64,000 nt of DNA, taken from the NCBI GenBank assembly GCA_016871375.1, contig VFYY01000002.1, positions 1,749 to 65,748 on the forward strand. Direction: 5' to 3'. The stretch is from Acidimicrobiia bacterium. GTDB taxonomy: Bacteria; Acidobacteriota; Vicinamibacteria; Vicinamibacterales; UBA2999. This document shows positions 24,367 to 27,342 of the stretch, one piece after another. Made by a program: the position numbers and the translations under genes. Numbering within the stretch: position 1 is the first letter of the stretch; the number at the start of each line of letters is the position of its first letter. Under the pieces are notes generated by a model. That model saw only the letters and a list, made by a program, of their open reading frames with translations, was not told the origin of the DNA and searched no databases.

Positions 24367-27342
24367 GTGGGTACACCTGACGCTCAGGCTCCGGCACGCG
24401 GTCCGCTGGTGGTGCGCGGCGCCCGGACGCACAACCTGAAGAACGTCGACGTCACGCTGCCCTCCGGCAAGCTCGTGATCATCACGGGGGTCAGCGGATC
24501 GGGGAAATCCTCGCTCGCCTTCGACACCATCTACGCGGAGGGGCAGCGGCGCTACGTGGAGTCGCTGTCGGCGTACGCCCGCCAGTTCCTCGAACGGATG
24601 GAGAAACCCGACGTCGATCGCATCGAGGGCATCTGCCCTGCCATCGCGATCCGCCAGAAGAACAGCGTCCGCAACCCGCGGTCGACCGTGGGCACCACGA
24701 CCGAGATCCACGACTACATGCGGCTGTTGTACGCGCGCGTCGGGCGGACGTACTGCCGGCAGTGCGGGCAGGAGGTCGTCCGCGAAACGGCTGAGGTCGT
24801 CGCCCGCCGGATTGGCGAGCTGCCGGACGGCACGCGCGTGATGATCGGGTACGAGATCCCGGTCGTGGAGATGCCGGCTCGAGGCGCCGCTGACGCGGGC
24901 GGCGACGAGGAGACGCCGGACGAGACCGAGGAGCGCAAGGGGACCTTCGATCCCATTGCCGAGACGCTGAACACGCTGCGGCGCCGCGGCTTCGGCCGCC
25001 TGCTCATCGACGGCCGGGCGGTGACGTTCGACGAGGTGGACCCCGCGGCGCTTCGGGGCCAGACGCGGCTCGAGGTCGTGGTCGACCGCCTGCGGATCGA
25101 AGGCGATCTCCGCAGCCGCCTCACCGACTCGATCGAGACGTCGTACCAGGAGGGCGGCGGCGCCGCCTTCGCGATCGTCGTGGGGTCAGACCCCATTCAC
25201 GGGTCGACTCAACCCCTTGATACGCCCCGTGTCATGGGGTCTGACCCCATGAGCCGCCTCGTGTTTTCCGAACGCTTCGAGTGCCGGCCCTGCGGCATCC
25301 CCTACGAAACCCCGCAGCCGCGCCTCTTCTCGTTCAACAACCCGTTCGGCGCCTGCCCGACGTGTCACGGCTTCGGCAACATCATCGAGCTCGACATGGA
25401 CCTCGTCGTGCCCGACCACTCGAAGTCGATCAACCAGGGCGCCATTGAGCCGTGGAGCAAGCCGCACTACCGCGCGCAGCTCGCCGGGCTGAAGCGCGCG
25501 GCGCGCAAGGCCGGCCTGCGCCTCGATGTGCCGTGGGCGGATCTTTCCGCCGACGAGCGCCAGTTCGTCGTCGAAGGCCACGACCCTTCGACAGGCTCAG
25601 GGCAGGGCGACTACGACGGCATCCGCGGCTTCTTCCGCTGGCTGGAGCGCAAGAAGTACAAGGTGCACGTCCGCGTGTTCCTGAGCCGCTATCGCGGATA
25701 CCTGGCCTGTCCGGACTGCGGCGGCGCCCGTCTGCGGCGTGAAGCGCGTGTCGTACGTGTCGGCGACCGGACGATCGATCAGGTGTCGGCGCTGACGGTC
25801 AGCGAGGCGCAGCAGTTCTTCGCCGGTCTGCAGCTCACCGAGAAGGAGGCGGCGGTCGCCGAGAAGGTGCTGCGGGAGATCCGGCGGCGGTTGTCGTTCC
25901 TTGCCGACGTGGGCCTCGACTACCTGACGCTGGACCGGCTGTCGTCCACGCTCTCCGGCGGCGAGTCGCAGCGCATCAACCTCGCCACCTCACTCGGGTC
26001 CGCGCTCGTCGGGACGCTGTACGTGCTGGACGAGCCGTCGATCGGCCTGCACTCGCGCGACAACCAGCGCCTGATCGACATCCTGCTGCAGCTGCGCGAC
26101 CAGGGCAACACGGTCCTCGTCGTCGAGCACGACGAGGACATGATCCGCGTCGCCGACCACATCGTCGACATCGGACTCGGCGCCGGCGAGCAGGGCGGCC
26201 GCGTGGTGTTCTCGGGCGATCTGCCCGGCCTGCTGCAGGAGCCGCGGTCGCTGACCGCGAAGTACCTGCGCAACGAGCTGGCCATTCCGGTGCCGACTCC
26301 GCGCCGCCGCGGCACGGGCCAGAAGATCACGCTGTACGGCGCCAGCGAGCACAACCTCAAGCACGTGGACGTCGACATCCCGCTGAACACGCTGACGTGC
26401 GTGACCGGCGTGAGCGGGTCGGGCAAGTCCACGCTCGTGCACGACGTGCTGTACGCCGCCATCAAGCGCGCCAAGGGCGACTGGGACCGCCGCGTCGGCG
26501 TGTGCCGCGGCCTCGAGGGGCTCGAATACATCAGCGACGTCATCCTGGTGGACCAGACGCCCATCGGCCGGACGCCGCGCTCGAACCCGGTGACGTACCT
26601 GAAGGCGTTCGACCCGGTTCGCGAGCTCTTCGCGCTGACGAAGGACGCGCGCTCGCGCGGGCTGACCGCGAGCCACTTCTCGTTCAACGTCCCGGGCGGC
26701 CGCTGCGAGGCCTGCCAGGGCGAGGGCGAGGTGCGCGTCGAGATGCAGTTCCTCGCCGACGTGTTCGTGCCCTGCGACCAGTGCGACGGCATGCGCTTCA
26801 AGCCGCAGGTGCTCGAGGTGCGCTACCGCGGCAGGAACGTGCACCAGGTGCTGGACATGACCGTGCGCGAGGCGCTGACCTTCTTCGGCACGTCGCCGAA
26901 GGTGCTGCGCCGCCTGCAGGTGCTCGACGAGATCGGCCTCGGCTACGTCCGTCTCGGCCAGCCGGCGACGACGCTGTCGGGCGGGGAGGCGCAGCGGATC
27001 AAGATCGCCGCGCACCTGGCGTCGTTCGGCGGCGAGCGGCTGCTCTACATCCTCGACGAGCCGACGACCGGCCTGCACTTCGACGACATCGCGAAGCTGC
27101 TGGCCGCGTTCCGCAAGCTGGTCGAGGCAGGGCACACGCTGCTCGTGATCGAGCACAACCTCGACGTGATCAAGACGGCGGACCACGTCATCGACCTCGG
27201 CCCCGAGGGCGGCGAGGCGGGCGGCCGGGTGGTGGCCGCCGGCACGCCGGAAAAGGTGGCCGCGGTGGAGGCCTCGCACACGGGGCGCGCGCTGCGCCAG
27301 GTCCTGGCGGACGGCCGGACCAATGCCTACGCCACGCGGTAG
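24367..27342 (+). CDS. uvrA: Excinuclease ABC subunit A
   Basis: 991 aa with a GTG start. Two ABC ATPase modules (GVSGSGKSSLAFDTIYAEGQRRYVESLSAYARQF; GVSGSGKSTLVHDVLY; LSGGE..LYILDEPTTGLH). Zinc-finger Cys pairs (CRQCG, CPTCHGFG, CPDCGGARL, CEACQGEG). Confidence 0.96.
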   Translation: MGTPDAQAPARGPLVVRGARTHNLKNVDVTLPSGKLVIITGVSGSGKSSLAFDTIYAEGQRRYVESLSAYARQFLERMEKPDVDRIEGICPAIAIRQKNSVRNPRSTVGTTTEIHDYMRLLYARVGRTYCRQCGQEVVRETAEVVARRIGELPDGTRVMIGYEIPVVEMPARGAADAGGDEETPDETEERKGTFDPIAETLNTLRRRGFGRLLIDGRAVTFDEVDPAALRGQTRLEVVVDRLRIEGDLRSRLTDSIETSYQEGGGAAFAIVVGSDPIHGSTQPLDTPRVMGSDPMSRLVFSERFECRPCGIPYETPQPRLFSFNNPFGACPTCHGFGNIIELDMDLVVPDHSKSINQGAIEPWSKPHYRAQLAGLKRAARKAGLRLDVPWADLSADERQFVVEGHDPSTGSGQGDYDGIRGFFRWLERKKYKVHVRVFLSRYRGYLACPDCGGARLRREARVVRVGDRTIDQVSALTVSEAQQFFAGLQLTEKEAAVAEKVLREIRRRLSFLADVGLDYLTLDRLSSTLSGGESQRINLATSLGSALVGTLYVLDEPSIGLHSRDNQRLIDILLQLRDQGNTVLVVEHDEDMIRVADHIVDIGLGAGEQGGRVVFSGDLPGLLQEPRSLTAKYLRNELAIPVPTPRRRGTGQKITLYGASEHNLKHVDVDIPLNTLTCVTGVSGSGKSTLVHDVLYAAIKRAKGDWDRRVGVCRGLEGLEYISDVILVDQTPIGRTPRSNPVTYLKAFDPVRELFALTKDARSRGLTASHFSFNVPGGRCEACQGEGEVRVEMQFLADVFVPCDQCDGMRFKPQVLEVRYRGRNVHQVLDMTVREALTFFGTSPKVLRRLQVLDEIGLGYVRLGQPATTLSGGEAQRIKIAAHLASFGGERLLYILDEPTTGLHFDDIAKLLAAFRKLVEAGHTLLVIEHNLDVIKTADHVIDLGPEGGEAGGRVVAAGTPEKVAAVEASHTGRALRQVLADGRTNAYATR
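25181..25249. repeat. 69-bp palindromic element inserted in frame in uvrA
   Basis: TGGGGTCAGACCCCAT (25181-25196) and its exact reverse complement ATGGGGTCTGACCCCA (25234-25249) bracket 37 bp. The total of 69 bp is 23 codons (GSDPIHGSTQPLDTPRVMGSDP). Confidence 0.85.

Follow-up and report, generated by a model that had tools for sequence, protein, structure and literature searches.

A palindromic element read in frame within uvrA of a Vicinamibacterales bacterium ends in repeats that match those of RAYT-like Y1 transposase units

Palindromic DNA inserted in frame is found here in the DNA-repair gene uvrA of a bacterium from the order Vicinamibacterales (phylum Acidobacteriota). The gene lies in a stretch of 64,000 nucleotides (nt) of contig VFYY01000002.1 (assembly GCA_016871375.1, positions 1,749 to 65,748 of the forward strand), which as a whole is referred to as the window and in which positions are counted from the first letter. 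The palindrome, at 25178-25252, is an insertion of some age. It belongs to a family with copies elsewhere, Y1 transposase units of other taxa have terminal repeats that match its own, and the reading frame of uvrA stays open through it. We consider it likely that this is a palindromic transposable element, short, non-autonomous and with GGGGTCAG ends, akin to miniature transposable elements that have inverted repeats (MITEs) and REPINs, which is tolerated in UvrA and is most likely a passenger there.

The palindrome and its fold

The element measures 75 nt at its widest on the plus strand, its ends being uncertain by a few bases. Its left arm, TGGGGTCAGACCCCAT (25181-25196), is separated by a spacer of 37 nt from its exact reverse complement (25234-25249), and each arm contains a 13-nt palindrome of the form GGGGTC-N-GACCCC (25182-25194 and 25236-25248). 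In arms and spacer the sequence is as an initial annotation of the window had described it. In the output of a repeat finder the arms, with one mismatch, reach 19 nt (25178-25196 and 25234-25252, 95% complementary), and the program also detects an inner imperfect hairpin (25198-25212 with 25217-25231, 80% complementary) and lists the arms as a 20-nt direct repeat, 54 nt apart. The 13-nt palindromes are the terminal cores of the element. The left core, GGGGTCAGACCCC, begins with GGGGTCAG and fits the consensus GGGGWSAS, and the right core, GGGGTCTGACCCC, is the reverse complement of the left. GGGGWSAS is accordingly present in inverted orientation at both ends, from 25182 as GGGGTCAG and at 25241-25248 as CTGACCCC. 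Homology of the uvrA element with other copies begins exactly at GGGGTC, position 25182. The family-specific part is the inner hairpin, CACGGGTCGACTCAA / TTGATACGCCCCGTG (25198-25231), which is common to three dispersed copies described below (L123, L124 and L125).

As RNA, the 75 nt fold into a single stem-loop of -58.8 kcal/mol (z -8.24), a value that none of 200 shuffled sequences equalled; as DNA, the palindrome folds at -32.8 kcal/mol (z -7.34). When up to three mismatches are allowed, the 17-mer ATGGGGTCWGACCCCAT has two matches in the window, where 0.06 are expected and none of 100 shuffles reaches two. The bare 13-mer with at most one mismatch is weaker evidence, as its two matches compare with 0.32 expected and two were reached by five of 100 shuffles. 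The initial annotation gave the correct translation of the element but put its length at exactly 23 codons. The Val codon 25180-25182 has 25181 as its second base, and from arm to arm the 69 nt therefore span 22 whole codons (GSDPIHGSTQPLDTPRVMGSDP) and parts of two more.

An empty site in the nearest relative and a filled site in a sister lineage

The host gene (24367-27342, plus strand) has 991 codons from a GTG start, database entries using an alternative start that gives 977 amino acids, and its product is recorded with identical sequence at JGI, NCBI and ENA. The closest homologue that lacks the insert (P0002) has 89% amino acid identity to it and its locus (L001) 87% nucleotide identity. 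At the insert site this homologue has IV-DGE-RLV and the window IV-VGSDPIHGSTQPLDTPRVMGSDPMS-RLV, so that the window has 63 nt more. The empty site supports the proposed lineage-specific insert, with a net gain of 21 codons and not 23. The same insert is found at the same site in a UvrA from two further samples (P0121, loci L134 and L135), the uvrA of which has 92% nucleotide identity to that of the window. P0121 is the only ortholog with a homologous peptide, and there the peptide is encoded by the same palindromic DNA. The counter-evidence named in the initial annotation, orthologs with such a peptide but no palindromic DNA, thus did not appear.

Between the window and this sister lineage 173 codons of uvrA differ synonymously and 48 non-synonymously, which indicates that the gene has been under purifying selection since the insertion. 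Within the 75 nt of the element there are four differences, all of them in the left inner arm, the outer arms being unchanged. The insert has three codons with a non-synonymous difference and none with a synonymous one, against 45 and 173 elsewhere in the gene (Fisher p 0.0097), and this suggests that the peptide itself is unconstrained. In a neighbour-joining tree the UvrA of the window groups with the insert-less P0002. Judged from these alignments, the uvrA palindrome was inserted some time ago, and the copy would have entered uvrA in the common ancestor of the two sister Vicinamibacterales lineages.

Dispersed copies and a terminal core found in several phyla

A metagenome scan with the junction between arm and inner sequence, among the matches of which the window's own contig does not appear, recovered homologous copies on three unrelated contigs (L123 to L125) that share GGGGTCAGACCCCATTCACGGGNCG(A/T)NTCA. 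These copies stand in unrelated contexts, mostly at gene boundaries, and the one in L123 seems to be at the 5' end of a gene. In L124 (1503-1600) a gene that by eye resembles a histidine kinase seems to take its last six codons and its stop (…TLPGVRPHA*) from the element, and in L125 (4739-4779) the spacer between two genes seems to consist of half an element, from which a TTG start would also come.

The core was followed separately, in one genome per species, by a scan for two GGGGTCWGACCCC cores 25-55 nt apart. At least 120 loci have such core pairs (L003-L122), where by our own estimate about 0.03 would be expected by chance. They come from Actinomycetota, Acidobacteriota, Planctomycetota, Gemmatimonadota, the Alpha-, Beta- and Gammaproteobacteria (Pseudomonadota), Bacillota and Bacteroidales, and include two Vicinamibacterales metagenome-assembled genomes (L013 and L098). 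The palindrome GGGGTCWGACCCC is common to repeat elements of at least seven phyla, and the surroundings all differ. Among the matches listed, the pairs are oriented A..T in 70 cases, T..A in 15, TT in 21 and AA in 16. The favoured orientation, GGGGTCAGACCCC...GGGGTCTGACCCC, is that of the uvrA element and of the transposase-flanking repeats discussed in the next section. Several core-pair copies per 8 kb are found in Halomonas and Marinobacter. In local BLAST comparisons of the element with the 120 core-pair loci the 17-20-nt arms alone were shared, the inner sequence not, and literature searches with the 13-mer and the 11-mer returned no microbial match. The notion that the core is a mere tip of local hairpins was dropped, the adjoining bases being non-complementary in 195 of the 333 cores checked.

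The terminal core flanks Y1 transposase genes

In the sections cited here, the 2013 survey by Di Nocera et al. (PMC3733652) describes genes for tyrosine transposases (TIRYT) that resemble the transposases associated with repetitive extragenic palindromes (REPs), the REP-associated tyrosine transposases or RAYTs. These genes are part of TIRtrons, units flanked by terminal inverted repeats (TIRs), some of which share GGGGWSAS. The same sections report moderately abundant TIR repeat families and a well-defined Acidobacteria TIRYT group (PMC3733652). Two of our 120 core-pair loci, from Halomonas (L108) and Marinobacter (L075), hold an open reading frame (ORF) bracketed by cores. Both products match the Pfam family Y1_Tnp (PF01797) above the cut-off, and the best NCBIfam match of each is the REP-associated tyrosine transposase. 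Plasmid-borne Y1 homologues were located by tblastn. In Rhodospirillum rubrum GGGGTCAGACCCC lies 49 nt upstream of the gene and GGGGTCTGACCCC follows the stop directly, the genes of Iodobacter and Sporomusa have inverted GGGGTCAG ends, that of P. aeruginosa has inverted GGGGACAG ends and that of Skermanella has GGGGTCAG upstream; two Burkholderiaceae copies have no such ends. The HUH motif and the tyrosine of RYIELNPV are invariant in the seven transposase proteins. The uvrA element shares its ends, and their orientation, with these autonomous units, around a short and unrelated interior, and so looks like a miniature derivative.

The related Y1 family is very large (7738 proteins with E <= 1e-10 among 8000 candidates), and many of its members sit on contigs of about 1 kb. 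A Y1 gene of Oribacterium (L065) was rejected because no core flanks it, and a Spirochaetaceae match was weak. The core presumably also resembles the inverted repeat of Tn3 (GGGGTCTGAC...), a likeness set aside in favour of the testable link to Y1 units.

The insert occupies a variable loop of UvrA

The product of the host gene is a class I UvrA, which matches Geobacillus UvrA (2r6f) over its full length (E 1.8e-295, residues 13-985), across the two ATPase modules, the zinc modules, the UvrB-binding domain and the insertion domain, and has CxxC pairs visible in its translation. The alignment to 2r6f has a 21-residue gap at the insert site, between ...DVIGE and GELLFSEKHACPYCG, where we take the UvrB-binding domain to end, directly ahead of zinc module 1's second CxxC. 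An AlphaFold2 model based on 68 close orthologs is poor overall (mean predicted local distance difference test score, pLDDT, of 48.8) but confident in the domain that holds the insert, and for this reason only the local loop is read from it. Residues 261-279 of the insert have a pLDDT below 50 and no secondary structure, and stand between strands 252-258 and 281-287. The insert is translated as what is predicted to be a disordered surface loop of 21 to 23 residues, rich in Gly, Ser, Asp and Pro; the encoded peptide VGSDPIHGSTQPLDTPRVMGSDPMS (25180-25254) would be a disordered excursion from the turn of a beta-hairpin in the UvrB-binding domain. The initial annotation had placed the element in a region where UvrA tolerates variable loops, and this loop does vary both among solved UvrA proteins and among 119 close orthologs. 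The annotation's description of uvrA as an essential repair gene has to be corrected, as the gene is not known to be essential in most bacteria.

No frame but the gene's own stays fully open across the element. One frame meets a TGA in the T-form of the core, and on the opposite strand there are stops in all three frames. Scans for terminators and promoters between 24300 and 27400 found nothing resembling either, the nearest run of four T residues lying 13 nt past the stem. At gathering thresholds the sole Rfam match in the whole window is a tRNA. In permissive Rfam searches the element matched only miRNA precursors, as a generic hairpin and with scores far below threshold, and eight multi-copy loci gave three matches, none of them on the repeats. 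A known structured RNA was therefore rejected, no Rfam family matching the element.

In 119 of the 120 closest UvrA proteins, the loop equivalent to the insert has 9-49 residues (at most 10 in 19 proteins, 11-16 in 31, 17-30 in 45 and more than 30 in 24). Its long versions read as translated repeats, for example GDQGSGIRDQ...DPRSPIPDP, PNPESRIPNPES and GDSGLGTGDSGLGT. At this loop, hairpins of heptamer repeats are found in L126 (-57.7 kcal/mol, z -6.3), L128 (-72.0 kcal/mol, z -4.7), L129 (-65.2 kcal/mol, z -5.9) and L131 (-84.7 kcal/mol, z -11.6), the heptamers (GGGATCA, GGGACTC, GGGATCC and GGGATTC) differing by one or two bases. We found no description of such a heptamer-repeat class. One-armed heptamer tracts are present in L127 and L130, the longer loop of L132 shows no significant fold, and L001 and L133 have the minimal loop and no hairpin. 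These states are interleaved on the neighbour-joining tree.

In-frame repeats at other sites of uvrA and in other repair genes

Two further loops of UvrA are indel hot spots. At a loop different from that of the insert, the uvrA of L131, from another member of the Vicinamibacterales, has two tandem in-frame copies of the GTAG REP GTAGTGTCCGGCTTTAGCCGGACC (nt 586-642), read as GPAKPGRYERTGPAKAGHYE. The same REP is present in seven intergenic copies in the window (at 13500, 13548, 31882, 31930, 31979, 32025 and 50681). The uvrA of the window also has a second in-frame repeat, CCTTCGACAGGCTCAGGGCAGG (25581-25606), which is read as PSTGSGQG and is a gain of 24 nt relative to L001. An insert at this site is found in the window and in 31 further orthologs, out of 120 compared, that are scattered over the tree, and the distant L133 has a near-identical copy there.

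The same short repeat, with one extra C, stands in frame at 27868-27893 in mpg, the methylpurine-DNA glycosylase gene that adjoins uvrA (27323-28057), where it is read as LRPGSGQA. Its absence from L001 and from the 92%-identical sister contig L134 points to a recent gain. In uvrC (45420-47312) the related repeat CCCTTCGACTGCGCTCAGGGCACG is in frame at 46326-46349 and adds FDCAQGT. This peptide is missing from the closest UvrC orthologs, P0125 and P0126, and at the same place P0131 and P0127 have a tandem PFDSAQGR. The uvrC insert is judged from orthologs because the middle of UvrC lies outside the solved structures. The in-frame repeat inserts of the window that orthologs confirm are the two in uvrA and those in mpg and uvrC; all other hairpin repeats detected in the window are intergenic.

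Transposition and its alternatives

If the palindrome is a transposable element, a Y1 transposase would have mobilised it in this lineage. Insertion would have proceeded by single-stranded DNA hairpin chemistry and would have left no target duplication; Y1 HUH transposition is not expected to create one. The insertion would be neutral. It may have been retained because it landed in the beta-hairpin turn of the UvrB-binding domain, in a loop freely variable in length, because the only stop-free frame is the one that is read, and because the net change in length is divisible by three.

Several observations weigh against this account. Neither the 64-kb window nor about 20 kb of the sister contig has a second copy of the uvrA element. 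A hidden Markov model search of the window, the sister contig and the acidobacterial loci detected no Y1 transposase gene, and among the best 120 matches of a profile search in a large protein collection none is source-named as acidobacterial, the named matches being Pseudomonadota and most having no name. At 13% divergence from the empty site, the boundaries of the insert and any target duplication cannot be fixed. Over its 25 codons the insert has no synonymous change, where 4.4 would be expected (Poisson p 0.012); as far as one sequence pair tells, the arms may be conserved at the nucleotide level, in sequence or in structure, a constraint for which a pure passenger would have no need. Finally, the repeats in repair genes of the window and the unrelated hairpins in the same loop of UvrA fit targeting or function as well as they fit tolerance.

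These last points would also fit a hairpin retained for a function. As a cruciform or an mRNA stem-loop it could tune expression through ribosome pausing, RNase processing or autoregulation; alternatively, the added loop could weaken the coupling of UvrA to UvrB and make the cell a mild mutator, a state about which Di Nocera et al. speculate for REP-tagged repair genes in the text cited here (PMC3733652). The stem is very stable, the outer arms are unchanged, the insert is free of synonymous differences, hairpins of unrelated sequence recur at the same loop in L126, L128, L129 and L131 (z -4.7 to -11.6), and the in-frame repeats in uvrA, mpg and uvrC of a single window point the same way as the repair-gene bias published in that survey (PMC3733652). 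Nevertheless we regard a selected role of the hairpin or of the loop, the main rival account, as unlikely. In 19 of the 119 close orthologs, the nearest outgroup among them, UvrA has the minimal loop of at most 10 residues and no hairpin, and L127, L130 and L132 keep only one-armed or decayed tracts. In the sister lineage the inner hairpin decays without compensation, there is no tail of the kind seen in terminators, the peptide evolves unconstrained, and the signal at synonymous sites comes from one pair of sequences.

The heptamer tracts and hairpins that fill the loop in relatives resemble local expansions and raise another question, namely whether the palindrome was built in place by template switching or slippage in an expansion-prone loop rather than transposed. 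That the arms also form a 20-nt direct repeat 54 nt apart and that no other copy is nearby would agree with such an origin. We think it very unlikely, as homologous copies with the same inner sequence occur in three unrelated contexts, the termini are identical to transposase-flanking repeats of other phyla, and presence and absence are clean, with no intermediates among the closest relatives. An assembly artefact, a chimera or a decaying pseudogene is hardly credible. Palindromes can confuse assemblers, and the contig is metagenome-assembled, but the identical sequence is held at three databases, a diverged copy comes from two further samples, and the ORF is intact, with full-length similarity to a solved UvrA and a strong excess of synonymous differences.

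Comparison with known palindromic repeats

In-frame palindromes in uvrA were reported earlier from other phyla (PMC3733652), and the finding is accordingly less novel than the initial annotation implied; the general phenomenon, with uvrA as a host, is already in the literature. The relevant passages of that survey describe intragenic GTAG/CGTC REPs as short palindromes, often dimers, that add 20-30 residues in frame to functional genes (PMC3733652). They are over-represented in uvrABCD, recBCD, polA and dnaE2, Opitutus terrae has dual REP inserts in both of its uvrA genes, and the tagged repair and replication genes are often the sole tagged genes of a genome (same passages of PMC3733652). In contrast to these REPs, the uvrA element has neither a GTAG nor a CGTC tag and ends in GGGGTCAGACCCC. 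The CGTC at 25176-25179 belongs to native Ile-Val codons that are present in the empty site L001 too, and no GTAG occurs in the element. Its host, from the Vicinamibacterales, lies outside the 2013 survey as far as the cited passages go (PMC3733652).

The likeness to the TIR repeats of TIRtrons is closer in that the GGGGTCAG ends have the same inverted orientation as around Y1_Tnp genes, and in that small dimeric or clustered copies are dispersed in genomes. The cited passages of PMC3733652 report for these repeats no in-frame coding copies, no full 13-nt core and no spread across phyla. With REPINs the uvrA element shares a construction as an inverted doublet of a short palindrome that forms a long hairpin, and both are tied to a single-copy HUH Y1 transposase and are mostly extragenic; classical REPINs, however, are GTAG-tagged and specific to a species or genus, whereas the core here has 13 nt and is shared across phyla. 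A cut-and-paste MITE would have terminal inverted repeats, which the element has, and a target-site duplication, any trace of which the 13% divergence of the empty site would obscure.

The initial annotation had compared the element with Rickettsia palindromic elements (RPEs). RPEs (Ogata et al. 2000), as PMC10969869 summarises them, are selfish palindromes that sit in frame within housekeeping genes and are translated, apparently in a way that lets the protein fold and function. They are about 100-150 bp long, AT-rich and restricted to Rickettsia, fall into ten families of their own and have no known transposase (PMC10969869). Going by this description, the uvrA element is set apart, since at 69-75 nt it differs in size as well as in base composition and host. 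What the two have in common is the in-frame insertion in a functional gene and its translation. The comparison thus holds for behaviour but probably not for membership, the ends of the uvrA element being the GGGGTCAG repeats of RAYT-like Y1 units.

Other repeats in the window and the source of the contig

A hairpin at 35557-35609, with perfect 20-nt arms (TGGGGTCGGGAGTCATTTTT / AAAAATGACTCCCGACCCCA), is flanked by two minus-strand genes and lies upstream of an MscS-family gene, 6 nt from its start. The initial annotation rightly noted this mscS hairpin and took its arm to be related to that of the uvrA element. The two have only TGGGGTC in common and are different elements. The repeat CCCTTCGAC..GCTCAGGGC has two more copies on the minus strand (56440-56463 and 59603-59624), one of them upstream of, or in an N-terminal extension of, an S1-domain (rpsA-like) gene and the other part of an inverted doublet hairpin near an ORF resembling acyl-CoA dehydrogenase.

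Two intergenic hairpins are AT-rich in a genome of about 70% GC (52714-52810 and 37801-37865). The heptamers (ATTTGTG)n / (CACAAAT)n make up one of them, and units like AATTAAGAATT the other. One-armed heptamer tracts are found at 49816-49843 (CTCCCAACTCCCAACGCCCAACGCCCAA), in the N-terminus of an ORF that starts at 49808 and by eye resembles ScpB, and at 40252-40280 (CCCCAAATCCCAAACCCCCAAACCC), in the C-terminal tail of ORF 39641-40300. At 60888-61040, between genes, nested hairpins arise from three copies of CGCGGTAGGGGCGAGGCA that alternate in orientation.

The UvrA and UvrC proteins identical to those of the window are labelled 'Acidimicrobiia bacterium' at NCBI (e.g. MBM3817482.1). Close homologues with a named source, outside the window's own protein clusters, are labelled Vicinamibacterales or Acidobacteria. 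Mis-binning or mislabelling of the contig is probable, and we give the host as a soil or freshwater acidobacterium.

Implications

Taken alone, the uvrA element is another case of selfish palindromic DNA that survives in a protein-coding gene. It is a clean and datable one, in which the nearest relative is empty, two sister lineages are filled and free-living copies exist elsewhere. It comes from a phylum with no earlier description of such elements, and it ties in-frame coding inserts to Y1 transposase units with GGGGWSAS ends.

At least four unrelated families occupy three fixed loops of UvrA in Vicinamibacterales, namely the GGGGTCAG-ended element, the heptamer hairpins, the GTAG REPs and CCCTTCGAC..GCTCAGGGC. 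Together with the in-frame repeats of uvrA, mpg and uvrC within 64 kb, this pattern independently repeats an observation made in 2013, in the text cited from that survey, that intragenic REPs concentrate in genes of replication and repair (PMC3733652). A bolder proposition, to which we give little credence at present, is that hairpin repeats are preferentially captured or retained in DNA-repair genes and, separately, that the 13-nt end marks one Y1 lineage of wide host range. If the former were true, insertion by transposases acting on single-stranded DNA hairpins would be coupled to the transcription or repair of these genes, or there would be selection for attenuated repair. If the latter were true, a Y1 lineage with an unusually wide range of hosts would bear, from Bacillota to Acidobacteriota, the same conserved transposon end. 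With hundreds of Vicinamibacterales UvrA and UvrC sequences, tolerance, targeting and selection would be statistically separable. For annotation, peptides such as GSDP..., PSTGSGQG and FDCAQGT within conserved proteins are to be read as repeat-derived.

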